Origin: Acidobacteriota bacterium
Lineage (GTDB): Bacteria > Actinomycetota > Acidimicrobiia > Spongiisociales > UBA5794
Assembly (NCBI GenBank): GCA_022562055.1
Contig: JADFQA010000009.1
Span: 17,255-81,254 of the forward strand
Direction of reading: 5' to 3'
Length of the DNA stretch: 64,000 nucleotides
Both the position numbers and the translations under genes were made by a program. Each line of letters begins with the position of its first letter. Positions within the stretch are counted from its first letter, which is position 1. Positions 6,059 to 32,799 of this stretch are shown one piece after another. The notes beneath the pieces are model-generated. The model made no database searches and had not been told where the DNA came from. It saw only the letters and a program-made list of their open reading frames with translations.

Positions 6059-9000
6059 CTAGCTGCAACCCTTGGAGTCTCCACAGTTGAGACAGCGGTA
6101 ACACGAGCCGTTGCGGATGGTGATGTGTCCGCAGGTGTCACACAACGGGGCATCGCCCATCTTGTCTGCGAGCATTGCCTGCACCGCGGCGGTTTGCACA
6201 TCCGCCGCGGACAAGATCGGTTGGGCCTGCCTCAGGTCCACAGACTCGGTTATCACTGTTGATGTCGCCACCGAACCCGCTGGTGACATCGCTACTGCTG
6301 ACGTCGCTACGGCGGGAGCCGGCCCTCGGGACGAAGGCGGCGGTGCGGCATCCACAAACCTTGCGGCGGATACTTGCACTGCGATGTCGGCTTCCATCGC
6401 TGCGTCGTTGAGATCGAGTTGTGTGCCGGCTTCTACTGCGAGTCCCTTTGGTAGTTCCGCCAGGTCTCTTTCTGGCGGGACCTGGGCGAGATCGTCACGG
6501 TGCAGGTAGTCGATGCCGAGTGACCGGAACACATAGTCGATAATCGAGTTCGACATCTTGATATGTGGATGCCCTTCGACCATGCCCCGGGGTTCAAACG
6601 TCTGGAACGTGAACGTGTCGACAAACTCTTCGAGTGGGACTCCGTACTGAAGTCCCTTGCTCACCGCAATCGCAAAACACGACAGAATGCCGCGTAGCGT
6701 GGCACCTTCCTTTGCGAGATCGATAAAGATTTCACCAAGAGTTCCGTCCTCGTACTCGCCGGTGCGGACGAACAACTTGTGGCCACCGACACGTGCCTCT
6801 TGAGTGAAGCCGACACGGCGTCCAGGCAACAGGAATCGAGGCCGTGGCATGTTGGCGTACGCTTCGGTGGGGGACATTCCGTACGGCAGCGAACCGGTGA
6901 CGGCGAAGGTTGCCACAACATCGATCTCTGCTTCGAGGGCGTCGGTGAGTTCCTCGTCCTCCTCATCGGACATGCCCCCGTCGGATTTCGCCGAGAGTGG
7001 CTGCGACGCCTTTGACCCATCGCGGTACAACGCCATCGCCTTAAGACCAAGCTCCCACGACATCCGGTACGACTCCTGGATGTCTTCAAGTGTTGCTTCG
7101 TTTGGCAGGTTGATCGTCTTGGATATGGCACCTGAGATGAACGGTTGCGCGGCAGCCATCATCTTGATGTGACCCGAATGGTGGATAAACCGTTCGCCGT
7201 ACTTGCCGTTTCGGTTAGCGCAGTCGAACACCGCGAGATGCTCAGCAAGCAGGTGCGGCGCCCCTTCAATGGTTTGGCGTCCGCAGATGTAGTCGTTTGC
7301 TTCGATGATCTCAGCCTGTGTAAAGCCGAGCGCTTTGAGCATGTCGAAGCCGGCGCCGTTGTATTCCTCGGGCGTGAAACCAAGACGCTGCATCGTCTCA
7401 TCACCAAGTGACCACTGGTTAAACGCAAAACCGAGCTCAAACACACCGGGCAGCAACGCCTCGATCGTGTCGAGGTCCTTTGCAGTGAAACCTTTGGCTC
7501 GCAGAGTGGCAGTGTTGATATGCGGCGTGCCGTGCAGGCTCATCATGCCGATCACATAGTTGATGATCTCCTCATTGTGGCTTTCCGAATATCCGAGGGT
7601 CCGCAACGCTGGGGCAACGGACTGGTTCACGATCTTGAAGTAACCACCACCAGCCAGCTTCTTGAACTTCACAAGTGCAAAATCAGGTTCGATACCGGTT
7701 GTGTCGCAATCCATCAGCAACCCAATGGTGCCCGTCGGTGCGAGGACCGTTGCCTGGGCGTTGCGGTAGCCAAACTGTTCGCCAAGTTTTACCGCAATGT
7801 TCCACGCATTGTGGGCTTCGGCGAGGAGGTCATCCGGGCAGATGTCTTGGTCGATGGAAAGTACCTGATGGCTAATGCCTTCGTACTCTTCGATCGCTAC
7901 ACCGTACGCAGCGCGGCGATGATTGCGCATCACACGAAGCATCGCATCACGGTTCTCGTCATATTTCGGGAACGGCCCGACTACAGATGCCATCTCGGCG
8001 GATGTTGCGTAGGAATAACCGGTGAGGATTGCAGTGAGTGCGCCGGCAATGGAGCGGCCCTTTTCGGAATCGTACGGAATGCCCGAGCGCATCAGTATTG
8101 AACCGAGGTTTGCGTACCCGAGTCCGAGTGTGCGGTAATCGTACGATCCCTGGGCGATTTCCTTGGAAGGAAACTGCGCCATGGTGACCGAGATCTCGAG
8201 GACGATTGTCCAGATGCGGATCGCGTGCCGGTAACCCTCAAGGTCAAACGTTGCAGTGGCGGAGTCGTAGAAGCTGACAAGGTTGAGCGATGCGAGGTTG
8301 CATGCTGTGTTGTCGAGAAACATGTACTCGGCACACGGGTTCGACGCCCTAATCTCGCCGCCGGCGGGGGAGGTGTGCCACTCGTTGATGGTGGTGTGGA
8401 ACTGCACACCGGGGTCGGCGCACGCCCACGCCGCTTCGGCGATCCTGTCCCAGAGTCCACGTGCGCTCACGGTCCGCATCACAGAACCATCGGTGCGTGC
8501 GGTGAGGTCCCAGTCGCTATCGCTGAGAACCGCCTCAACAAACTCATTTGAAAGGCGGACTGAGTTGTTGGAGTTCTGACCCGAGACGGTGAGATAAGCC
8601 TCGCCGTTGAAGTCTGCCGGGTAACCGGCAGCGATCAATGCACGGACCTTGTCTTCTTCTTTGGCTTTCCAATCAATGAAAGTCTCGATATCGGGGTGGT
8701 CGATGTCGAGGATCACCATTTTGGCTGCGCGACGGGTCGTTCCACCGGATTTGATAGCCCCGGCGGCGCGGTCGCCAACCTTGAGGAAAGACATCAGACC
8801 GGACGATTTTCCACCGCCGGAGAGCCGTTCGCCTTCGCCGCGAATACTTGAAAAGTTGGTACCGGTGCCTGATCCAAACTTGAAGAGTCGAGCTTCACGG
8901 ACCCACAGGTCCATGATCCCGCCCTCGTTGATGAGGTCGTCTTTCACAGCTTGGATGAAACAGGCGTGTGGCGATGGACGGCTGTAGGAGTCTGGCGATT

Positions 9001-20827: not shown

Positions 20828-21256
20828 TCAGCGCGATGTTTCGCGCCCCGCTTTTATAGCGGCGATGCAATGGGGGAACAGTCTCTCGACCCCCGTGTGG
20901 ATGCCGGCAACGATGATCCCGAGTGTTTCTTCGTCGATAACTTGTACTGGCAAGCGGCCGGAGAGGAAGATGTCCTCTCCGGAGTCGAATGCGACCAACA
21001 CGGGCCAACTGCCCGTGTTGAACCGCAAGAACCGGCGCGCCAACTCGTGGTTCGACACCCGCCCGAAGAGATATGCCTCGAAGTGCAAGGTGATGGTCCC
21101 AGGGTCAAACCAGATCGTTGTCGCGTCGCGGCATTCTTGTTCTATTCGGATGCCGAGACGGTTTTCAAACTCACCCGCCCACACGACACCCGAATCGTTG
21201 TCTTGCACCCACTCGGATGTAATCACCGAGACCTGCTCCCAAAGGTTGCCCTTCAC
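20828..21256 (-). CDS. YbjN-domain (T3SS-chaperone-like) protein
   Basis: About 140 aa, overlapping the mshA stop. The mshA-ybjN pairing is typical of actinobacteria. Confidence 0.7.
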   Translation of the reverse strand: MKGNLWEQVSVITSEWVQDNDSGVVWAGEFENRLGIRIEQECRDATTIWFDPGTITLHFEAYLFGRVSNHELARRFLRFNTGSWPVLVAFDSGEDIFLSGRLPVQVIDEETLGIIVAGIHTGVERLFPHCIAAIKAGRETSR

Positions 21257-22476
21257 GACGCCGATATGCCGTCGTAAAGTTCCAACAGGCGCTCGACCGT
21301 CCTATCCCACGAGAACTGTTCAGCATGCGCAACGGCACCTTCCCTCATCGCGGCATGGTGTTCGGGCGACGACAGGAGTTTGTCGATCGCCGCGGCGAAA
21401 GAGCTCGGGTCGTGTCCATCGATGAGGACGCCAGATTCGCCGTCCTCCACTACGTACGAGAGGCCGCCGACCGCGGCTGCGACCACGGGTAGGGCACATG
21501 CCTGTGCCTCGGCTGCAACGAGACCGAACGACTCGCTGCGACTTGGCATTAAGAGAAGCTCAGCACCCCGGTAGAACATCGGCAGGGTCCGGTGAGGTTT
21601 GGCATCGATGAAATCGACGTTGTGCGCTATGCCGAGGTCGGCTGCCAGGGTCCTGAGCATGGTCAGCTCATCGTTGCCCGTCGGGCCACTCGGTCCTCCG
21701 ACGATGACAAGCCGGAATGCCCCGAGTCCACGTCCAAGGAGGTCGGCTGTGGTTTTGACAGCGATGTCGAATCCTTTCAACGACTGGATTCGACCGACAC
21801 ACAGCAGCACATGCTCAGCGCCCCACCCGAGCTGTTCGCGAGCGGTTTCTTTGTCGCCGGGCCGAAACAACGAGTGGTCAATGCCGGGTGGGCTTATGCA
21901 AAGACGGCCCGGATCTGCGCAATAGTGGTCGAGGAGGTCGTCGAACTCATACGGGGTCGCAGCGATCACGCAGTTTGATTGGGCAATGGTGTCCAACTCG
22001 ATCTCCATGCGGATCGAAGGAGACGCTGGTTCGTCGGCGCGGCGGTTGACATCCTTGACGCGGCCGAGTGTGTGGAAGGAGTTTGCCAGCGGGATCCCGA
22101 GAGCGTGTTTGAGCTTCACTCCGGCCCGACCGCTGAGCCAGTAGTGCGAGTGGATAATGTCAAACGTAAGCCCCGATTCCGTTATCCAGCGCAGCACTCC
22201 GTCTGCAAACTCGTCTGCGTAGTTCGCCATGTCGGTCATAGGGATTTCAGATGGGGGACCCGCGTCGATCCGGACAACGGTGTATCGCGGCGATACCGTG
22301 ACGATCTGCTCGGTCCCCGTTTCGAAACGCCGCGTAAACACAACAACATGGATGCCACGTCGCGCCATCTCGACTGCGAGTTCATCGACATAGACGTTCA
22401 TCCCGCCGGCGTTGCCGACTCCCGGTTGAAGGCGCGGAGACGTGTGCATGCTCAGCACGGCAATGCGTGAGATCAC
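21253..22476 (-). CDS. mshA: D-inositol-3-phosphate glycosyltransferase (mycothiol biosynthesis)
   Basis: IAVLSMHTSP..QPG.G.AGGMNVYV, HSHYWLSG, HTLGRVK, GRIQSLKG and SRSESFGLVAAEAQACA. Confidence 0.92.
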   Translation of the reverse strand: MISRIAVLSMHTSPRLQPGVGNAGGMNVYVDELAVEMARRGIHVVVFTRRFETGTEQIVTVSPRYTVVRIDAGPPSEIPMTDMANYADEFADGVLRWITESGLTFDIIHSHYWLSGRAGVKLKHALGIPLANSFHTLGRVKDVNRRADEPASPSIRMEIELDTIAQSNCVIAATPYEFDDLLDHYCADPGRLCISPPGIDHSLFRPGDKETAREQLGWGAEHVLLCVGRIQSLKGFDIAVKTTADLLGRGLGAFRLVIVGGPSGPTGNDELTMLRTLAADLGIAHNVDFIDAKPHRTLPMFYRGAELLLMPSRSESFGLVAAEAQACALPVVAAAVGGLSYVVEDGESGVLIDGHDPSSFAAAIDKLLSSPEHHAAMREGAVAHAEQFSWDRTVERLLELYDGISAS

Positions 22477-23375
22477 GTCGCTGCCTCCACTTCGTAGAGA
22501 TCGCGCGCGGTGGCGCCCATGCGGAATTTGTACGGCTCGTCACCCTTGAGAAAATCGAACCGGTGCACTCCCATTTCGATGACGTGCTCGATCAGGAGAT
22601 CCAGGAGGACCACTCCGGGCGCACCCTCAGCGAACGACGGCTCGAGCGCAGAGTTGTACAGGTAGTAGGCGTCGGATTCGAAGAAACCAAACGCCATCGC
22701 CGCGGGTCTTTCGTCTGCACCCAGCAATGTGGTGATCGTCGCCCCGGAGTCCGCGTGGAGACCGTGAAAGAACGCTGCCATCTGTTCCGTCATGAAGACT
22801 CCCTTCTCGCCGATGGTGTTTCTGTGCATCTTCGCAAATGTTGCCACAGCATCTGCTCCGGATACCGTCACAAGTCTCGGTTCACCAAACGCTTCCGCAA
22901 AGCGGCGTCGTTTGCGACGGACCTCGTGACGTTGTTTCTTGGACAGCGTGGCAAGCCACTCGTCCCGGCTGTCGCCCAGCGTCATCACCGCGGCGACTTC
23001 GTGGATTCTCTTGGTTGGTGTGAGCCCGGTCGCTTCGATCGCTTTCATCACAACCGCCGCAGCTTCGTCCGGCAGCGAATCGAAAACCAACGAGGTGCCT
23101 CTTGGCAGCGCACCGATCCAGTCGGCGAGGAGATCTACCGCGGTCGGACCGAGCGGCGAGTGATAGTCAGTGACATCGCGGTGGCCGGCAAATGACACCC
23201 TGCCGTCCTCAAACACAAGAGGGACGAGCGAATCGTTGTTTGCGAGCACGACAAGGTCACCGGCAGGAAAGTGTTCTCTCCACGCCCGTAAGAACGGTGC
23301 ATGGGGGAACGGGCCGAGCAGTTGCGCCGCGGGCTGAGCCGCAAAAACTGGGTTGTCGAATGGTGATTTGCTCAC
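22473..23375 (-). CDS. GNAT-family protein (Acetyltransf_6, CelD/BcsL-like)
   Basis: DVTDYHSPL, LSKKQRHEVRRKRRR, YYLYNS and FDFLKGDEPYKFRMGA. Start placed at the GTG at 23375. Confidence 0.82.
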   Translation of the reverse strand: MSKSPFDNPVFAAQPAAQLLGPFPHAPFLRAWREHFPAGDLVVLANNDSLVPLVFEDGRVSFAGHRDVTDYHSPLGPTAVDLLADWIGALPRGTSLVFDSLPDEAAAVVMKAIEATGLTPTKRIHEVAAVMTLGDSRDEWLATLSKKQRHEVRRKRRRFAEAFGEPRLVTVSGADAVATFAKMHRNTIGEKGVFMTEQMAAFFHGLHADSGATITTLLGADERPAAMAFGFFESDAYYLYNSALEPSFAEGAPGVVLLDLLIEHVIEMGVHRFDFLKGDEPYKFRMGATARDLYEVEAAT

Positions 23376-23379
23376 GAAC

Positions 23380-24315
23380 TCAATCCTCGAACGCCGGCTC
23401 GGTGGTGCCTTGGGAAACACCACCGCCGATCGTCGTCGGGTGGGCAATGTCATGGACCGCGGTGACCGCTGCATCAGATAGTAGGCCGTACCGGCGCGTC
23501 CCTTCGACGAGCAGCATCACAGCGATCCCGGCATCCCCGGACCAGCTTTTGGCGGCGATTCCGACACCGTGGCGGGCGGCGACCAGAAGACCTTCGGCGC
23601 CGACTTTCATCGGACCGTCCCACCATTGGCCAAGCTTTGTATCAGACCGTTCGCTACCGCCGATCAGTGCGGTGTATCGGCAATTCGCGGACACGGCTTC
23701 GGCGAAACGAGGGTCACATGAGATGCCCACAAAGGTTCGTGCGGCCGCACTGAGCGTTGTGCGCAGGACCGGCGCACCGCACCCGTCGACGCCGACCGGT
23801 TCCGGGTCAAACCCCGAGACCTTTCGGGTCAGGTCTATCACCCGTCTCTGGAGCGGGTGATCATCAGCCAGATAGGTGTCAAGAGGCCACCCTTGGGCGA
23901 CACATGCGCGTAGCCACGCCGCGTGCTTGCCCGAGCAGTTGTGGAACAGACGTTTTGGAGTGCGGTGCCCGGTTGCGATGAGGAGTTGTCTGGCCCGAGA
24001 GGCCTGCGGCCAGTCCGGTGGGCAACGCAGCGCGTCCTCGTCGAGATCGACAGATGCGAGACTCTGTCGGATGATTGCAAGGTGTATAGGCCAACCGGAG
24101 TGCGAGGAACCGGCGATAGCCATGTGTTGCGGGTTGAGGTTTGCGCCAGCCTCCTGTGACACGGTCGCTTGGACGAGCTTGAGAGATGATCTCCAGTAAA
24201 ACACCGGATCAGTGTCCCCCCATGACGCGAGAACTCTGCCGGTCGCATCAGCAATAACAACGCCTCCGTTATGCGTCGTTTCGGCGAGACCGTTGCGCAC
24301 GGTGCGGGCCAGCAC
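23380..24315 (-). CDS. L-asparaginase II (Rhizobium-type, class 3)
   Basis: RSSLKLVQA, SHSG..H, HNCSGKHA, GVDGCGAP and KVGAEG. Confidence 0.9.
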   Translation of the reverse strand: MLARTVRNGLAETTHNGGVVIADATGRVLASWGDTDPVFYWRSSLKLVQATVSQEAGANLNPQHMAIAGSSHSGWPIHLAIIRQSLASVDLDEDALRCPPDWPQASRARQLLIATGHRTPKRLFHNCSGKHAAWLRACVAQGWPLDTYLADDHPLQRRVIDLTRKVSGFDPEPVGVDGCGAPVLRTTLSAAARTFVGISCDPRFAEAVSANCRYTALIGGSERSDTKLGQWWDGPMKVGAEGLLVAARHGVGIAAKSWSGDAGIAVMLLVEGTRRYGLLSDAAVTAVHDIAHPTTIGGGVSQGTTEPAFED

Positions 24316-24323
24316 GAGCCGGT

Positions 24324-24872
24324 CTACGACTTCTGGAGGATGTTTTCCGCTTTTGTCAGGCCCTCGCGATATCGGCGGGCGAGTTCGTCGTTGATTTGCT
24401 CATGTGCGGCGTACACCGCACGTCTGTCGCGTGACACCAATCGTTCGACATCGGCAAGTGACGTGCGAATCTCTTCAAGTTCGGCGTCTTCGAGGACCGG
24501 TAGCCTCGTCAGAAAGTCATCGCCGAGGACGCGGTCAACAATTCGGCGCCCCTCTTCGGGTATGTCCGGCATGTCAACCGATAACGGGCGGGGCATGCCA
24601 GATCGACTGCCACCAGACATGTCGCTTGCGAGGATCTCAGGGAGTGCATCGATGAGGCTACGAGTCTCTTCGCCCGAGCGTCGCCGCACTTCGAAGCTGA
24701 GAAGGTCGAGTCTGCCATGGAGTAACCGGCGGTAGTACGACAGTTCGGTATCGAGGTCGTTGCAGATGGACCGCTTTTCTCGAAGCTCGTCCATGTCAGC
24801 ATCGGCGAGTCCTTCGACGAACGCGGACTCTGTCACGATGTCGATACGGCGTTTATGCGTGTCTGTCATCAT
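24324..24872 (-). CDS. rsiG: RsiG/AmfC-family anti-sigma factor with two variant c-di-GMP motifs
   Basis: DTELSYYRRLLHGRLD and ERLVSRDRRAVYAAHE resemble the E-x3-S-x2-R-x3-Q-x3-D repeats. Adjacent to asparaginase II. Confidence 0.8.
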   Translation of the reverse strand: MMTDTHKRRIDIVTESAFVEGLADADMDELREKRSICNDLDTELSYYRRLLHGRLDLLSFEVRRRSGEETRSLIDALPEILASDMSGGSRSGMPRPLSVDMPDIPEEGRRIVDRVLGDDFLTRLPVLEDAELEEIRTSLADVERLVSRDRRAVYAAHEQINDELARRYREGLTKAENILQKS

Positions 24873-24899
24873 TGCTCTCCGAGTGGCGGTGTATGCAGG

Positions 24900-25994
24900 T
24901 TAACAATTTGCTCGCAGAGTCGGGTACGGGTTTTTCCACCGGCTTCCGACCGCCTGGATCTGGAAGTGAACGTGGGGTCGCCCGCCGGCGGCGTTGCCGG
25001 AAGCACCGTTGTAGGCGATCACTTGGCCAGCCGTCACCCGGTCGCCGGTCTTGAGCCCGGACACATATCCATCGAGGTGTGCGTAGTAGAACCGCATCCC
25101 GTAGTCGGTGGTCAAATACACGACGATGCCACCGAGTCCGCCGGTCTTGAGGCGCACGGTGCCGTTGCCCACCGCGACAACCGACTTGCCACGGCCCGCA
25201 AATATGTCGGTTCCCTGGTGCGTCCTCCCGCCCGAGCGCGGGAAGCCCCAGTCGTTGATGAATGTTCCACCCGGAAGCGGACAGCGCAACCCCGGCGTTG
25301 CGTCGGGGGGAAATCCACCGGAAGCGCCGCGTTTTTTGGCAGCCTCGATCGCTCTGAGTCGGGCCTGCTCACGGTTGTATGCGTTGACGGCGGCCCGCGT
25401 CGTTGCGCTTGCAGCGTGGAGCTGTTCGTCGCGTTCGCGCTCGATTTTATCGAGCACGGTGACGAGTTCTTCACTGCGCGCATTGATCTCAGCGACACGA
25501 ACTCTGTCGGTGTCCAGAATCGTCTTCAGCTTGTTGGCTTCTACCGTGATGGACGTGTAGTTCTGAAGCTGTGCGATTTCTCGTTCGGCCGCCCGTTCGA
25601 GTAGAAGCTGGGTTGTCATGAGGTCTTGAATCGATCCGGCAGACAGGGCAAGTCCGATGATCGACGCGCTCGTGTTCGACGTGTACGATTCAAACAGCAG
25701 CGTTTCTGCCCGGTTCTTGAGGTCTGTGGCCTCACTTTCGTACGCCCTGATTTGGTCCACCAACCGGGTAGTTTTGTATGTGAGTTGTTCGAGTTCAGCG
25801 TTGATCAGCTGATACTCGGTGAGTGCCGCCTCAAGCTTGTCGTTGGCAATCTGGTATGCCGCAACGGCCCTTTCTTCTTCGGCCCGCGCGCGATTGATCT
25901 GCTCTTTCGTCTGGGCGAGTGCGCCCGTCGGGATGATGAGGAAAACCGCTAGCGCAGCCCCTACAAGCGCACGGGCGCGTGGTCGTGAGGTCAT
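24900..25994 (-). CDS. Secreted coiled-coil M23 peptidoglycan endopeptidase
   Basis: Signal peptide from the ATG at 25994, a long coiled coil, and M23 motifs HQGTD, YAHL and HVH. Confidence 0.9.
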   Translation of the reverse strand: MTSRPRARALVGAALAVFLIIPTGALAQTKEQINRARAEEERAVAAYQIANDKLEAALTEYQLINAELEQLTYKTTRLVDQIRAYESEATDLKNRAETLLFESYTSNTSASIIGLALSAGSIQDLMTTQLLLERAAEREIAQLQNYTSITVEANKLKTILDTDRVRVAEINARSEELVTVLDKIERERDEQLHAASATTRAAVNAYNREQARLRAIEAAKKRGASGGFPPDATPGLRCPLPGGTFINDWGFPRSGGRTHQGTDIFAGRGKSVVAVGNGTVRLKTGGLGGIVVYLTTDYGMRFYYAHLDGYVSGLKTGDRVTAGQVIAYNGASGNAAGGRPHVHFQIQAVGSRWKNPYPTLRANC

Positions 25995-26119
25995 AACCAC
26001 AAGCTTAGCGACGCTCGTGTCGAATACATCACTCGGGTGGTGCCGACTGCTGGTACGGTTCGGTGCTGTGTCGATCACGAATTCTCAGCGTGCACTTCAA
26101 TTCGTGCGGTCGTAGTTGG

Positions 26120-26431
26120 GTGACACGGACGCGGCCAGCCAGCGGGGTCGGTTTTCCGATTGGGACGTTCGCCGTGAACGTCTTCGGTTCAGCGATGTTG
26201 GGACTTCTTGTCGGATACTTTGGGTCGTCTGCCAGCGCCGATCTCCGCCTCGGCCTATTTGTCGGTGTGCTTGGCGGGTTCACGACGTTCAGCACATTTG
26301 CGGTCGAGTCGGGGAACCTGGCGAGAGGTGGCTTTGCGAGCACCGCAGCGGTCTATGTTGCGGTATCGGTTCTCGCCGGGCTGGTTTTTGCTTTGGCAGG
26401 TCTCCACCTAGGCGAGCTGATCGCCGACTAG
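26120..26431 (+). CDS. crcB: Fluoride channel Fluc/CrcB, apparently lacking TM1
   Basis: GTFAVNVFGS and GVLGGFTTFSTF. No GGxxGAxxR TM1 motif was found upstream in any plus frame. Confidence 0.75.
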   Translation: MTRTRPASGVGFPIGTFAVNVFGSAMLGLLVGYFGSSASADLRLGLFVGVLGGFTTFSTFAVESGNLARGGFASTAAVYVAVSVLAGLVFALAGLHLGELIAD

Positions 26432-27429
26432 AGAAACCAGGTTGTCGCCACCCAGTAGCTAGCTACGCCGAGGGTCATCGAGTCGAGACCTGTGAGACGC
26501 CCGGGCGATGTTGTCGTGTGGAGCACCCGGTCTGTGCGGATCAGCGAGCCGACCGACCTGCCGGCGATCATGCCGAGGGCTGTCATGATCGCGATGAGAG
26601 CGGCGCTGGGGATCGAGATCCCTTCGGTTAGAAACGTCGACGCGATTCCACCGAGGAGGGCTGCACCAAGAGTTGCGGTGTTTGCGTCGAATGTGGACAC
26701 GTGGCTTGAGGCGCTGGTTTGACGGGTTGCGATCCAAACGCCGACACCGGTGAGTCCGGCTATGAGAAGCAGCATCCGAGTCTGCTGAATCGACGCCAAG
26801 CGCACCAGGACGAGGCTCCCTGACGCCACCGTTCCCACGACCGAGAGAGTGACCGTGTGTGAGAGGTTGGCCACGTTGCGGTGTTCCGCGCCCAGTACGG
26901 TCCATGCCATCGGCACGATCGCCGCGATCGCGATCGCGCCCGCCAGCCCCGTGAATCCCCAAGCCCACACCGCGTTGGCGCCCGCAGCCGCGCCGACCAT
27001 GGCTGCCGGAAAGTTTACGTGCGCACCGCGACCGCGCATTGTCTCGCCGACATCCCAGACCCACCCGAGCACCGCACCGACTGAGAGCACAACCCACACT
27101 TCGCTACTCAACGTGAGGCCGAGAGCGAAGACACCGAGGATCGTCGCCGACAATACACTGTCAATCGTTGGGGCATCGACGGTTTCGGCGAGCGCTCCGC
27201 CTGACACTGGCGGGATAAGCGCAATCTCGTCCGTTGCAGCAACAGTCGTGTCCCGATCGGTGGGGTCACCGTTTAGCCACACCTGAGCCGTTTCGAGACC
27301 TGCAGCAAAGCGGTCGCCAAAGCGGCCTGACGCCTCGTCAAGCACTGCACCAACAGTGGTCGCGTCGATGTCTACTGAAGATGTGCCCGCCGCTTCGCGG
27401 AGGGATGCAAAGAGTCGTAGAGTCGCCAC
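26428..27429 (-). CDS. MoaD/ThiS ubiquitin-like domain fused to a multi-pass membrane domain (degenerate CdsA-like)
   Basis: LRLFASLREAAG...EIALIPPVSGG ends at residue 78 and continues in frame into about 8 TM segments, ending GRSVGSLIR...PGRLTGLDSM. Confidence 0.85.
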   Translation of the reverse strand: MATLRLFASLREAAGTSSVDIDATTVGAVLDEASGRFGDRFAAGLETAQVWLNGDPTDRDTTVAATDEIALIPPVSGGALAETVDAPTIDSVLSATILGVFALGLTLSSEVWVVLSVGAVLGWVWDVGETMRGRGAHVNFPAAMVGAAAGANAVWAWGFTGLAGAIAIAAIVPMAWTVLGAEHRNVANLSHTVTLSVVGTVASGSLVLVRLASIQQTRMLLLIAGLTGVGVWIATRQTSASSHVSTFDANTATLGAALLGGIASTFLTEGISIPSAALIAIMTALGMIAGRSVGSLIRTDRVLHTTTSPGRLTGLDSMTLGVASYWVATTWFL

Positions 27430-27606
27430 ACGTGTCCTTAGAGTTCAGAGCACCAGGCTAGCGGCTGAAACGCAAGGCCTCGCGCCAGGAGAACGTGTCG
27501 GTAGGGCAGCTGCGCTCAGGCAGGTTTCCATGTGGGTGTGACGAAGCTCGGGGCGCTTGCGTTTAGTCTCGGAGACCGCATCGTACTTGACCGCGTCTCA
27601 CCGGTG

Positions 27607-28705: not shown

Positions 28706-29947
28706 CTAGGGGCGGATGGTGGTCCGGATCTCTCCGAAACCTATACGGGGGGTGGTGGTGCCGCCAGCGTGGCCGCGGATTATCACCTCGTCACCGTCGA
28801 GGAGGAACGTGCGTTGCGTGCCGTCGTCGAGGGTGATCGGTTCAGCGCCGTTGCGGGTGATCTCGAGCAAACAACCAAGCGAATCGGGCGTGGGCCCCGA
28901 GATCGTGCCGGAGCCGTAGAGGTCGCCAGGGTTGATCAGTGTGCGATTTGAGGTGAGGTGCGCGAGCTGCTGCGACACGGTCCAATACATGTGACGAAAG
29001 TTCGAGTTCGAGACACGGTTCCCGTTCAGATCGACGCTCAGAGCAATGTCGAAACCAGCGCTTTTCGTGGCTGACAGATGAGGGAGCGGTTCGGGTTTTT
29101 GTTCGGATGGCGGCACGCGGGTATTGGCGAGTGCTTCGAGTTGCACGATCCAGGGGGCCGTCGTTGTGGCAAACGACTTCGCGTTGAACGGACCGAGCGG
29201 GCGGTACTCCCACGCTTGGATATCACGAGCGGACCAGTCGTTGAGAAGCATCAACCCAAAAATGTGGCTCTCAGCCTCGGCGACTTCGATCGGGTCGCCA
29301 CCGGGATTGGACGGGCCGGTCACAAAGGCCATCTCGAGTTCAAAGTCGAGTTTTTCCGTTGGTCCGAACACCGGGCCCCCTGGCCGCGGGAGTTGGCCGG
29401 ACGGTCTGCGAAGCGGTGTGCCCGACACGGAGACTGTCGAAGCTCGGCCGTGGTACGCAACGGGCAGATGGCGCCAGTTCGGCAGAAGTGCTTCGTCGTC
29501 TGGGCGAAAGAGCCTCCCGACGTTGGTCGCGTGATACGCCGACGAGTAGAAGTCAACAAAGTCGCCAATCCTCACAGGCAGGTGCATCGTTGCGTGGGAT
29601 TGGGGGATAAGCGCGGATCCAGCGATGGCCGCAAGACCGGCGCCCTCTTCGGCCAGAAGTTGCGACAGACGCCTCCTTACGTTGATCCACGTGTCTTTCC
29701 CGAGCGACAGGTAGTCGTTCAACGTCCCGGTCGCGAACACGTCATCGGGTAGGCCGAGCTCGTCGAGAAGGCCGCTGGACTGGAGGACCACCAAGTCAAT
29801 GACGTCTTGACCAATCGCGACCGCGCACCGACGGTCGCCTCCTGTGCTGAAGACTCCGAACGGAAGGTTCTGGATAGGAAAGTCGCTCTCTTGAGTGACC
29901 GGTACCCATGACGTCAACGCCGGGTCGAGTGTTGGGTCTGACGTCAC
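28706..29947 (-). CDS. fahA: Fumarylacetoacetase
   Basis: FPIQNLPFG, DFYSS..HATNVG, PVAYHGRAS, LDFELE, NDWSARDIQ..EY.PLGPF and GSGTISG. Confidence 0.95.
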   Translation of the reverse strand: MTSDPTLDPALTSWVPVTQESDFPIQNLPFGVFSTGGDRRCAVAIGQDVIDLVVLQSSGLLDELGLPDDVFATGTLNDYLSLGKDTWINVRRRLSQLLAEEGAGLAAIAGSALIPQSHATMHLPVRIGDFVDFYSSAYHATNVGRLFRPDDEALLPNWRHLPVAYHGRASTVSVSGTPLRRPSGQLPRPGGPVFGPTEKLDFELEMAFVTGPSNPGGDPIEVAEAESHIFGLMLLNDWSARDIQAWEYRPLGPFNAKSFATTTAPWIVQLEALANTRVPPSEQKPEPLPHLSATKSAGFDIALSVDLNGNRVSNSNFRHMYWTVSQQLAHLTSNRTLINPGDLYGSGTISGPTPDSLGCLLEITRNGAEPITLDDGTQRTFLLDGDEVIIRGHAGGTTTPRIGFGEIRTTIRP

Positions 29948-30909
29948 GGCCGCTCCTTCGGGAGTAGGACCAGCGGCCTCGGCAGCAACTCAAGGGATCG
30001 GAGGTCTTCGGTCGGTTCCTCGAAGCTGCAGCTTCCGTAGGACGGGAACAGCGCGGTCCTGATCCGCTGTAGTGCTGGGATGTCGAAGGTTGTGTCACCG
30101 ACCGTCATACCGGCGACACCAATGTGGAACTGGTGGTCCTGCGATCTCGAGAGGGCCGCAACGATGGTCTCCCGCGTCGCCCCGTGGTCCGCGAGCGCAG
30201 CGGCGGCGAGCAGGTTGATGAAACCGTGACGTTCCACGCCCAGATCCGCCCACTTGTGTCGATATGGGTGGTGCAGACCGGCAGTTGCCTTGAACGGAAC
30301 TCCGTGTGTGGCGCATGCGATCACGAAGTCGGCGACCTCGCCGAGGCTTGGGAACGCCGCGGCGGTCGCCCCGCCGGTGCGCAGCTTGGCGCCGAGCGTG
30401 CGGTGTCGGTCGGTCGTTTCGTTGGCGATTGCCGGAACCACAATATCTAGGGTGGTCTGCCAGGACTCCGTCCGCGGTATTTCGAAGAAAGGCACAACGG
30501 TCGGGGAGATCGAGCACGCTGCGTCGATGTATGGCACGATGTCGGGGCGCCCGGATGTAAGTGCGAACTCAGACGGTAGCGGCACTTCGGTGAATACGAT
30601 CTGTACCGCCGACCCCATCTCTGCGGCGAATACCTGCGTCGTCGCTGCCGCGCTCGCAACGTCGCCGTCGAGGATCACGGCGAGCGGCCATGGCGCCTCA
30701 CCGTTCTCCATTGTTGGTATCAGCGAGGCGGCAAGTTCGGCAAGACGGCTTGCCGGGCAGATGAACCTGCCGGCAATCCATGCCTCAGGCGAGCTGCGTG
30801 CGTTGCGGTACCCGGCTATCGCGTCGTCCATCGCCAGCGATGCCGGTGGGAACAGTCCGGCGTAGTCGACGAGTCCTTCGAACAGGACGCGCCGTGCGTC
30901 TAGGAACAT
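29944..30909 (-). CDS. Conserved hypothetical protein between hmgA and fahA
   Basis: FEGLVDYAGLFPPA, KLRTGG, PFKATAGLHHP, HGFINL and YGSCSFEEP. Coupled to fahA by a GTGA overlap. Confidence 0.8.
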   Translation of the reverse strand: MFLDARRVLFEGLVDYAGLFPPASLAMDDAIAGYRNARSSPEAWIAGRFICPASRLAELAASLIPTMENGEAPWPLAVILDGDVASAAATTQVFAAEMGSAVQIVFTEVPLPSEFALTSGRPDIVPYIDAACSISPTVVPFFEIPRTESWQTTLDIVVPAIANETTDRHRTLGAKLRTGGATAAAFPSLGEVADFVIACATHGVPFKATAGLHHPYRHKWADLGVERHGFINLLAAAALADHGATRETIVAALSRSQDHQFHIGVAGMTVGDTTFDIPALQRIRTALFPSYGSCSFEEPTEDLRSLELLPRPLVLLPKERP

Positions 30910-30934
30910 GGCGCTGGGATCCAGGTGTGCAATA

Positions 30935-32089
30935 TCATGTCTGCCAGCTCGAAAGGTATGCGGGATCCTCGCAGTCGAAGCCCGAAGTTCCAATGTCGAG
31001 CGGTCGGAAGGTGTCAATCATGACAGCGATTTCCTCAGTTCCCGCCTTACCGATTCCGGCCTCGACAGACCCAGGCTGTGGGCCGTGTGTGTGGCCGGCC
31101 GGGTGCAGTGAGAGGGAGCCTTGCGCGATCCCGGACCCTTTTCTCGACATGAAGTCACCGTCCATGTAGAACAGAACCTCGTCCGAATCGACGTTGGCGT
31201 GGTGGTACGGGACCGCAATCGCGAGCGGGTGGTAGTCGAACAGCCGCGGCACGAACGAACACACCACCAGGTTCGGCGCCTCGAACGTTTGGTGCACCGT
31301 TGGTGGTTGGTGGATGCGGCCGGTGATTGGCTCGAAATCGAATATCGAGAATGTGTGCGGGTAGAGACATCCGTCCCATCCCACGACATCGAACGGGTGG
31401 TTCTCAAACACGAACCGTGACGTCCCGCCGCGGTGTTTGACCAGCACGGGCACGTCCGTGCCTTCTTCGAGGAGGGGTTCGGTGGGTCCGTGGAGGTCCC
31501 GCTCGCAGTACGGGGCGTGTTCGAGGAACTGACCATGGCGTGACAAGTACCGCTTCGGTGGGGTGATGTGGCCGGTCGTTTCGAGGATCAGCGCCCGCAC
31601 TGTGTCTGACGTGATTACCCATCGGTGGATCGTTGATGCCGGGATGATGACGTAGTCGCCCCGCTTGAAGGGGAGCCTACCGAACGTCGAGTCGAGGAAA
31701 CCCTCGCCGTGCTCGATGAAAACCATTTCGTCCCCAATGGCGTTCTTGTACAAACCCGATGTAGTGGACACATGGGCGTACGAGATCCGGCAGTCGTTGT
31801 TCCCCATCAGCAGGTTGCGACCCTCGACGAGGTCGTGCGTCACTCCCAACTTATGTGACCGCATGTGGCGCGGCATCAACGGGCGGTTCGGTTCGAGTGT
31901 CTCGTGGCTCAGCGATAGCGATTCAATGCTCTTCATCGCGGTTGGGCGGGTCTTGTGATAGAGCAGCGCCGAGTCGAAGGAGAAACCCTCTTCGCCCATG
32001 AGTTCTTCGGTGTACAGGGAGCCGTCTTCTTGTCTGAATTGAGTGTGACGTTTTGGTGGAATCTCGCCGACGCTGCGGTAATACGGCAT
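30935..32089 (-). CDS. hmgA: Homogentisate 1,2-dioxygenase
   Basis: HPFDVVGWDG, HQPP.VHQTF, CSFVPR, Fe-ligand region PYHH.N.DSDE and LHPAGHTHGP. Confidence 0.95.
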   Translation of the reverse strand: MPYYRSVGEIPPKRHTQFRQEDGSLYTEELMGEEGFSFDSALLYHKTRPTAMKSIESLSLSHETLEPNRPLMPRHMRSHKLGVTHDLVEGRNLLMGNNDCRISYAHVSTTSGLYKNAIGDEMVFIEHGEGFLDSTFGRLPFKRGDYVIIPASTIHRWVITSDTVRALILETTGHITPPKRYLSRHGQFLEHAPYCERDLHGPTEPLLEEGTDVPVLVKHRGGTSRFVFENHPFDVVGWDGCLYPHTFSIFDFEPITGRIHQPPTVHQTFEAPNLVVCSFVPRLFDYHPLAIAVPYHHANVDSDEVLFYMDGDFMSRKGSGIAQGSLSLHPAGHTHGPQPGSVEAGIGKAGTEEIAVMIDTFRPLDIGTSGFDCEDPAYLSSWQT

Positions 32090-32091
32090 GA

Positions 32092-32799
32092 CTATCTCCT
32101 TACGAGTTTCTGTCGGGGTGGTGTTGCTGTTGCTGCGGATGCGACAAGTGCGATCGCGGGGCCAAGTTCTGCAATGGGTGGTAGCCGGTTTGTCGGTGCG
32201 ACGATGCCGATCGACGCGACGGCCGTTCCCGTGTGATCGAGGACCGGTGCCGCTATACCCGTGACGCCAGGCTCGATTTCGTCGTGGGAGACCGCAAAAC
32301 CTGCAATGCGGACTTGTTCGACTTGTGCTTCGGTCTCGCTGTTGAGTCGTAGTGTGAGACGATTCGGATGAAACGCGAGAATTGCGCGCCCGTGCGCCCC
32401 AACTGTCATGTGGTGAGAGGACCCGACGCGGTAGTCGACCCTAACCATGCGACCAGACGCCACCACTTGGTCGGTGGCGATGGCGAAAGCGCCGTCGGGT
32501 ATTGCAACGAGCGCGGTCTCGTTCCATATATCCGCCAACCTAACGATGGCAGGTCGGAGGGCGTCGGTTACGTTGCTCGTAGCCCTGCGAGCCAGGTCGA
32601 GGATCCCACTGCCGAGGACCCACCCGGTCTCGCTCTGGCGAACCAAGTCTCCGTATTCGAGCGACCGTAGACATCTGAGCACGGCCTGTCGGCTCGCACC
32701 GAGATCCTGCGAGATGCCGGTCGCCGTTGCAAGCGCGGCGTCGGGGATGTGGTGGAGCACACGCAACGCAAGATCCACGGTCTTGGATGTCTCTGCCAT
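32092..32799 (-). CDS. IclR-family transcriptional regulator
   Basis: N-terminal winged HTH, GAHGRAILAF and EIEPGVTGIAAPV. Confidence 0.92.
   Translation of the reverse strand: MAETSKTVDLALRVLHHIPDAALATATGISQDLGASRQAVLRCLRSLEYGDLVRQSETGWVLGSGILDLARRATSNVTDALRPAIVRLADIWNETALVAIPDGAFAIATDQVVASGRMVRVDYRVGSSHHMTVGAHGRAILAFHPNRLTLRLNSETEAQVEQVRIAGFAVSHDEIEPGVTGIAAPVLDHTGTAVASIGIVAPTNRLPPIAELGPAIALVASAATATPPRQKLVRR

Follow-up and report, generated by a model that had tools for sequence, protein, structure and literature searches.

MoaX (Rv3323c) of Mycobacterium tuberculosis and DR2607 of Deinococcus radiodurans are the described systems closest to the protein reported here. Both are MoaD-MoaE fusions: in MoaX, cleavage between Gly82 and Ser83 is required for molybdopterin (MPT) synthase activity (PMC4326299), and DR2607 is cleaved by the JAMM protease of D. 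radiodurans (PMC8832034). We analyzed a gene in a window of 64,000 nucleotides (the whole stretch of DNA under study; assembly GCA_022562055.1, contig JADFQA010000009.1, positions 17,255 to 81,254) from a member of the class Acidimicrobiia. This gene encodes a MoaD domain whose Gly-Gly is followed in frame by a membrane protein derived from CdsA, the phosphatidate cytidylyltransferase. The reading that we favor, with a probability of roughly 55%, is that its product is a precursor cleaved after Gly78, as MoaX and DR2607 are, which would yield the MoaD of the cell.

Like MoaX and DR2607, the fusion has an N-terminal MoaD with the Gly-Gly exactly at the junction and a flexible linker behind it, and JAMM, E1, and MoaE are all encoded in its genome. 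Unlike them, its partner is a CdsA-derived nine-helix membrane protein and not MoaE, so that the precursor would be membrane-anchored; it is the sole MoaD in many genomes and not an extra copy; and the case for its cleavage comes from genome inventories. The pairs CysO/Mec, QbsE/QbsD, and SAMP/HvJAMM1 also comprise a carrier of the ThiS/MoaD fold whose Gly-Gly needs to be exposed by a JAMM/MPN+ protease, as would be the case for the fusion. However, the CysO, QbsE, and SAMP precursors end in a small number of additional residues or in an amino-acid adduct, whereas the fusion carries a membrane protein of 255 residues. In architecture, with a beta-grasp domain in the cytoplasm ahead of a polytopic membrane domain, it resembles EccD of the ESX type VII secretion system and YukD-type proteins, but there is no sequence homology with EccD and the superposition is poor (root-mean-square deviation of ~16 Å). 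In addition, the ubiquitin-like domain of EccD is uncleaved and without a Gly-Gly, which is invariant in the fusion.

The fusion gene and its Gly-Gly junction

The product of the gene (Table 1) begins with MATLRLFA, the N-terminal start in all fusion homologues, and its first 78 residues are a MoaD-type sulfur-carrier (ubiquitin-like) domain. Pfam ThiS (PF02597) matched residues 5-78 with positions 2-76 of its 76 (E 2e-11; 44.7 bits, above the gathering cut-off of 22.5), and since the end of the profile falls on residue 78, the domain model terminates exactly at Gly78. The TIGR moaD, archaeal moaD, and SAMP1 models likewise all terminate at residue 78, all under their equivalog cut-offs (the archaeal moaD subfamily model at 46.1 bits against 49.5). 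A model of the whole protein by AlphaFold 2 (AF2), made with 86 homologues in the alignment, had a mean predicted local distance difference test score (pLDDT) of 92.4 and placed a disordered stretch (residues 78-84, pLDDT <50) between an N-terminal beta-grasp domain and a helical membrane domain. When the N-terminal domain was compared with the PDB by Foldseek, it matched M. tuberculosis MoaD2 (6jbz_B, TM-score 0.81), E. coli MoaD (1fm0_D, 0.80), and H. volcanii SAMP1 (3po0, 0.72), the TM-scores being target-normalized and the identities 32-35%. The complete MoaD/SAMP-like fold that a sequence-only reading of this DNA had assigned to residues 1-78 is thus borne out by profile, model, and structure comparison alike. 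The domain is predicted to sit in the cytoplasm, because nine helices follow it and the CdsA signature loop lies on the cytoplasmic side; this N-in topology with nine transmembrane segments was read from the AF2 helix pattern and the CdsA alignment.

About 100 homologues were found among 5.8 billion proteins searched, nearly all of them 327-335 aa long and of the same architecture. They came from NCBI, JGI, ENA, and Logan assemblies, reached down to 30% identity and, where named, carried labels of Acidimicrobiia/Actinomycetota MoaD/ThiS proteins. The MoaD domain ends in PPVSGG (residues 73-78), and its Gly-Gly is internal to the open reading frame (ORF) of 333 aa, as had been claimed from the letters alone. 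P73, P74, V75, G77, and G78 were invariant in all 86 aligned sequences, across which the block DE[VI]ALIPPVSGG is essentially fixed; conservation of the fusion and its Gly-Gly was a check that the same reading had proposed. After Gly78, 66 of the 86 have Ala at P1' and 16 have Thr. The linker varies in sequence, and its length from Gly78 to residue 91 is 12-13 residues in 77 of the 86. Mean pairwise identity in the same set was 62% for the MoaD domain versus 39% for the membrane domain. The fusion was present in 58 of the 61 genomes of the order examined, near-closed assemblies included, and this uninterrupted frame in so many homologues and genomes means that it is no artefact of assembly. 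The gene is genuine and order-wide.

Carrier, E1, and JAMM genes in the genome and its order

The genome that holds the window is 97% complete, and the fusion is its only sequence of the ThiS/MoaD family. No free MoaD was found by a Pfam scan at E<=0.1, by a hidden Markov model of the family (run with --max) against all 38,999 frames, or among the 196 frames of <=170 aa inspected out of a total of 231 that end in Gly-Gly; nor was any MoaD-like ORF visible among the unannotated ORFs beside moaE on contig C41. MoaE (on C41), MoaC, and an E1 that combines a rhodanese with a ThiF domain are nevertheless all encoded, together with no second MoaD. All three lie on contigs other than that of the fusion, in agreement with the earlier remark that no moa genes are nearby. 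The MoaD domain of the fusion is probably the only MoaD of the cell and would serve MoaE, a point that goes beyond what had been read from the sequence. ThiG gave only weak TIM-barrel cross-matches in this genome, and no ThiS/ThiG route to thiazole was evident.

A search for JAMM/Mec and E1 genes had also been proposed, and a competent JAMM protease and the rhodanese-ThiF E1 were both found. One intact JAMM protease is encoded, at C48:10827-11297 (PF14464, 58 bits), with its E..HSHPEGAPYPSSVD motif whole (HxHx7SxxD). Its context is Mec-like, with genes for a metallo-beta-lactamase (MBL), RNase PH, and RdgB downstream, which makes it the positional equivalent of mycobacterial Mec, although, unlike in the CysO/Mec system, neither cysO nor cysM lies alongside. 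The JAMM locus (C48:10827-14500; L010:5828-9500) looks tandemly duplicated over the JAMM gene, a small membrane protein gene, and the start of the MBL gene; its second JAMM copy runs across two reading frames (L010:6939-7331 and 7171-7473), either as a frameshifted pseudogene or through a sequencing error. The E1 (C24:22307-23710; L011:5308-6711) is the only ThiF-family E1 of the genome, and its rhodanese domain (residues 103-192) is N-terminal to its ThiF domain (211-445), the reverse of the usual MoeZ/MoeBR order.

We then have the wider order, whose 61 genomes are metagenome-assembled genomes (MAGs) or isolates of varying completeness; phyletic correlations among them are not phylogenetically independent. 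MoaE was found in 58 of them and JAMM in 57. The fusion is the only ThiS-family match in about 27 (TGS-like matches in frames of ~740 aa were excluded from this count), 25 of them with MoaE, and these sole-MoaD genomes include near-closed assemblies (G027 in one contig, G049 in two contigs, and G009, G012, and G034).

A different situation is seen in family f8 of this order, where two genomes (G043 and G054) carry the CdsA-like gene without the MoaD domain (E 2e-75 and 2e-68). The gene has the same neighbors, a MaoC dehydratase and M23, and begins with a short tail of ~25 residues. JAMM is absent from both genomes. G043 has a canonical moaD, with a stop after its Gly-Gly, immediately upstream of a divergent moaE, and moaC belongs to this cluster too; G054 is without MoaD, MoaE, and MoaC. 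The fused MoaD domain and JAMM are thus missing together in f8; in G043 MoaE has an ordinary MoaD to serve it, and in G054 there is no MoaE.

Further arrangements were found elsewhere. On one metagenome contig the two parts are split: an 80-aa MoaD ending in PPVSGG-DR is closed by two stop codons, the GTG of the CdsA-like gene follows 4 nt later, and M23 and RsiG come next. Three further sets of metagenome contigs hold the CdsA-like gene alone, without MoaD. In two proteins, P0099 and P0100 (L028:513-1283), the same MoaD subtype (57% identity) is fused at the same Gly-Gly, with the junction ...PPVSGG-S, to an RsiG-like domain; neither a membrane domain nor an M23 gene stands between the two parts, and a helix-turn-helix gene comes next. 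As the CdsA-like protein also exists without a MoaD domain, it probably has a role of its own; these MoaD-less proteins, too, were beyond the sequence-only reading.

The CdsA-derived membrane domain and the gene neighborhood

With Pfam and NCBIfam models, neither the whole protein nor any of 21 membrane domains gave a match beyond ThiS; a hit of DUF1427 (E 0.008-0.02) was judged to be noise. The CdsA family model PF01148 gave no match at E<=1 in the 21 members or at E<=10 in the query protein, and a sequence search of the PDB with the membrane-domain profile gave none either. When the profile of these 21 sequences was searched against 1.84 billion (1.84e9) representative sequences, 137 proteins were retrieved. 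The strong matches were the fusion family itself, and the weaker full-length matches were phosphatidate cytidylyltransferases (E 9e-8 to 4e-4), verified as PF01148 at E ~1e-57. Alignment of the family with five actinobacterial CdsA sequences by hhalign gave a probability of 98.3% (E 1.4e-14 over 241 columns), and, reciprocally, a CdsA profile found the fusion in its own genome at E 2e-4, along with a genuine CdsA on contig C18; the same profile matched TmCdsA (4Q2G) at E 3e-33. The AF2 model of the membrane domain alone (pLDDT 91.4) had nine helices, as in CdsA. Foldseek against the PDB with the full and the membrane-only models returned no membrane-domain match at E<0.1, and 4Q2E was absent among the 50 matches listed. 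Foldseek is weak on all-helical membrane proteins, and the CdsA assignment is therefore based on profile homology and not on fold. By that measure, the membrane domain is genuinely, though distantly, homologous to CdsA over its full length.

The likeness to CdsA (PF01148; TmCdsA 4Q2E/4Q2G) extends to remnants of the G..S..[KR] and PG...D signature at the same position and to the 'WE' motif, which appears as 'WD' (W125-D126). In the signature region, G290, R298, and D316 are invariant among the 86 sequences and R291, G294, S295, P309, and G310 nearly so. Unlike in CdsA, the Asp of the 'GD' motif aligns to Arg291, which is Arg in 80 and Lys in 4 of the 86, so that 84 have lost the acid. We take this Asp to be half of the metal-binding dyad D219/D249 of TmCdsA, which is consistent with the 30-residue spacing against 4Q2G; the dyad was reportedly described by Liu et al. 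in 2014. The signature Glu is replaced by Gly294, Ser295 is retained, the CdsA Lys has become the invariant Arg298, and none of the KD, HGG, and SPKKSWEG motifs is present. One Asp of DRxD remains as the invariant D316; whether this is the first or the second varies with the loop alignment. The full pattern S-x-x-K-R-x4-K-D-...-P-G-H-G-G-x-x-D-R-x-D, with the GD Asp, is thus not found in the family. Invariant charged residues do occupy positions of the CdsA active-site funnel (D126, R184, D248, R291, R298, and D316). Judged from these alignments, the domain has lost the cytidylyltransferase active site, and the earlier observation that the tail echoes the CdsA signature without its catalytic residues fits both the profile comparison and the loss of most signature positions.

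In the MoaD-less f8 proteins (L039:1426-2238 and L041:1489-2283), Arg291 is replaced by Gln (IVAGQTAGSLLR). A second lineage of degenerate CdsA-like proteins occurs in other Actinomycetota (P0212 on L029 and P0227 on L031; for example GDIGGRLLR...VPGYGGVMARLD). Their genes stand alone, convergent with a NifU_N gene and without MoaD upstream, and the lineage is intermediate between true CdsA and the MoaD-fused CdsA-like family. P0212 and P0227 had been candidates for stand-alone members of the family and were rejected as belonging to this different lineage beside NifU; P0107, a candidate for a stand-alone membrane-domain protein, was rejected because it is truncated at a contig end.

The membrane-domain family was found only in the order of the window when 251 genomes sampled evenly across the phylum were searched (7 of 7 in the order, 0 of 11 in the class outside this order, and 0 elsewhere). 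The M23 peptidase gene downstream of the fusion was at the same position in L001, L003, L004, L032, L035, L036, L039, and L041. The whole downstream string, from the M23 gene to the GT4 gene, keeps its gene order in relatives at 34-39% identity; YbjN is also in the string of the relatives checked and was not detected in the window. The RsiG-like protein carries DxxxSxxRxxxHxxxD and ExxxSxxRxxxYxxxE, which resemble the two cyclic di-GMP (c-di-GMP)-binding motifs of RsiG, and RsiG homologues are known from Acidimicrobiales (PMC8325347). Between the fusion and the M23 gene, and convergent with the fusion, lies crcB, with an overlap of 4 nt at the fusion stop and one of 16 nt at the start of the M23 gene; contig L030 has the same convergent crcB, which was not seen in L001, L003, and L004. 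The upstream cluster of the window is probably a ring-cleavage pathway of the homogentisate or gentisate type, and its fumarylacetoacetase is also the upstream neighbor of the fusion in L001.

Table 1. Features of the fusion gene and its surroundings, in positions of the window.
Feature	Position	Strand	Basis or remarks
Whole fusion gene	26428..27429	-	333 codons and TAG stop; MoaD domain, linker, CdsA-derived membrane domain; one uninterrupted ORF
GTG start codon of the fusion gene	27427-27429	-	Sequence reading
Shine-Dalgarno-like AAGGA	27435..27439	-	5 nt 5' of the GTG start; sequence reading
MoaD/ThiS beta-grasp domain, residues 1-78	27196..27429	-	Pfam PF02597, TIGR01682, TIGR01687, and SAMP1 models; Foldseek
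Gly77-Gly78 codons; proposed cleavage site after Gly78	27196..27201	-	Invariant in 86/86
Flexible linker, residues 79-86	27172..27195	-	pLDDT <50 for residues 78-84
CdsA-derived nine-helix membrane domain (by profile), residues 87-333	26431..27171	-	Profile search, hhalign, AF2
Remodelled CdsA signature AGRsvGSliR...H..tsPGrLtgLDS, residues 289-317	26479..26565	-	Alignment, hhalign
crcB (fluoride channel)	26063-26431	+	
M23 peptidase with signal anchor and coiled coil, downstream neighbor	24900..26078	-	Pfam
RsiG-like protein (anti-sigma, c-di-GMP type)	24324..24872	-	PF22802, E 3e-14
Asparaginase II	23380-24315	-	Conserved downstream string
Acetyltransf_6/FemAB-like	22473-23474	-	Conserved downstream string
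GT4 glycosyltransferase	21253-22476	-	Conserved downstream string
Whole downstream string	21253-26078	-	
Upstream cluster	28706-32799	-	Fumarylacetoacetase, unknown 357-aa protein, cupin/HgmA-like dioxygenase, IclR regulator

A probable cleaved precursor and its alternatives

The sequence-only reading had left two alternatives, a precursor released by a JAMM protease or a regulatory tag on a pseudo-enzyme, and comparative genomics favors the first over an uncleaved tag. We prefer the cleaved precursor because the fusion is the sole ThiS/MoaD protein in a genome that holds MoaE, MoaC, E1, and JAMM, and because the same combination of a single ThiS-family match and MoaE recurs in about 25 relatives. 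The joint loss of the MoaD domain and JAMM in f8 points the same way, as do the invariant PPV-GG in all 86 sequences, the stronger conservation of the MoaD domain than of the membrane domain, and the disorder of the linker past the Gly-Gly. The same type of MoaD is also found as a separate 80-aa gene and fused at its Gly-Gly to RsiG, and MoaX and the D. radiodurans MoaD-MoaE fusion give precedent for the maturation that we infer.

In this model, the cytoplasmic MoaD domain would be cut off behind Gly78 after translation, probably by the single JAMM metalloprotease of the genome, which is otherwise without a substrate. The rhodanese-ThiF E1 would then adenylate and thiocarboxylate the freed Gly-Gly carboxylate, and the freed MoaD would serve MoaE as the small subunit of molybdopterin synthase, possibly with other sulfur-transfer or modifier roles besides. 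The CdsA-like protein would remain in the membrane and work independently with its M23 peptidase/RsiG neighborhood. M23 is a family of Gly-Gly endopeptidases, and the neighboring M23 peptidase was considered as the processing enzyme; it was rejected since its signal anchor should make it extracytoplasmic, and the MoaD domain is predicted to be cytoplasmic.

Several observations weigh against the cleaved precursor. The domain does not reach the cut-off of the TIGR01682 moaD equivalog (47.7 bits against 66.15). About half of the relatives carry extra small ThiS-family proteins that could in principle serve MoaE; nine of these genes lie directly beside JAMM and are read as CysO, and the remaining ones are of other types, some extended past the Gly-Gly. 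G026 (94% complete) has an intact fusion and JAMM but neither MoaE nor MoaC, and the MoaD domain may for this reason have a role outside molybdenum cofactor (Moco) synthesis, while G052 (95% complete) has the fusion and no JAMM match. The pattern in f8 is that of one lineage and one evolutionary event, seen in MAGs. Finally, a precursor leaves unexplained why MoaD is tied, across the order, to one particular membrane protein, and its repeated linkage to the cluster in three arrangements hints at more than a housekeeping carrier.

These points bear on the alternatives. The MoaD domain might never be released and act as a permanent cytoplasmic beta-grasp domain, EccD-like, that regulates the CdsA-derived pseudo-enzyme or recruits partners to it (E1, MoaE, RsiG, or others). 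The combination of a ubiquitin-like domain and a polytopic membrane domain has a precedent in EccD, which was among the Foldseek matches, the order-wide retention of the fusion and the constant linker length would suit such a protein, and G026 keeps the fusion without MoaE or MoaC. However, an uncleaved domain has no need of a Gly-Gly, yet the Gly-Gly and the block around it are invariant, and about 25 genomes would be left with MoaE, MoaC, and E1 but no usable sulfur carrier. The existence of the split form with a free 80-aa MoaD also argues against it, and so do the AF2 models, which give no confident docking of the two domains across the linker (predicted template modelling score of 0.77 for the whole protein against 0.88 for the membrane domain alone); the likeness to EccD is one of architecture only. 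Permanent attachment is therefore, in our view, unlikely. That the frame was created by a sequencing or assembly error, which deleted a stop after the Gly-Gly between two adjacent genes, deserves virtually no credence: such a split arrangement does exist in at least one relative, but the independence of the ~100 homologues across four sources and the closed genomes among the 58 that carry the fusion speak against it.

One can also imagine that the two parts still act jointly after cleavage. Once MoaD has been released and the E1 has activated it, the remodelled nucleotide/lipid pocket of the CdsA-like protein could act on the Gly78 carboxylate and couple it, for instance, to the head group of a lipid, as for Atg8, or to another acceptor, and the system might feed the M23/RsiG-sigma-WhiG module encoded downstream. 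Such a membrane-bound system would account for the three ways in which MoaD is tied to the cluster (fused to the CdsA-like protein, adjacent to its gene, and fused to RsiG), for the six invariant charged residues at the funnel, and for G026, which retains the fusion and JAMM without Moco genes. Against it, we identified neither an acceptor nor an E2-like or ligase component. The CdsA-like protein is retained in f8, where both the MoaD domain and JAMM are missing, and without MoaD on several metagenome contigs, and so has no need of the ubiquitin-like domain; in the family, moreover, another residue stands in place of the metal-binding Asp, and the motifs for nucleotide binding are gone. We consider this proposal, which is conjecture throughout, rather improbable. 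In its boldest form, the proposal makes MoaD and the CdsA-derived protein complementary parts of a ubiquitin-like system at the membrane that has not been described before. Gly78 would be joined to a membrane lipid, as a bacterial counterpart to the lipidation of Atg8, or passed on to a target, and the output would be tied to M23 and the RsiG/sigma-WhiG c-di-GMP switch; we consider this form very improbable.

The literature searched held no paper that joins MoaD with Acidimicrobiia or with phosphatidate cytidylyltransferase. What appears to be new is a type of MoaD precursor, cleaved at its Gly-Gly if our reading is right, with a membrane-embedded partner. A whole order of Acidimicrobiia would then make its only sulfur carrier for molybdopterin synthase as the head of a membrane protein, and every MoaD molecule would have to be released by proteolysis. 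JAMM-dependent maturation, so far no more than a peculiarity of MoaX and DR2607, would turn into a step that Moco synthesis cannot do without and that might be regulated, and the orphan Mec-like JAMM would gain a substrate. The analysis also defines a small, previously unnamed family of membrane proteins, derived from CdsA, with Arg in place of the metal-binding Asp and conserved beside M23 and RsiG. The fusion of one ubiquitin-like domain, at the same Gly-Gly, to either a CdsA-like protein or RsiG parallels the ubiquitin fusion precursors of eukaryotes.

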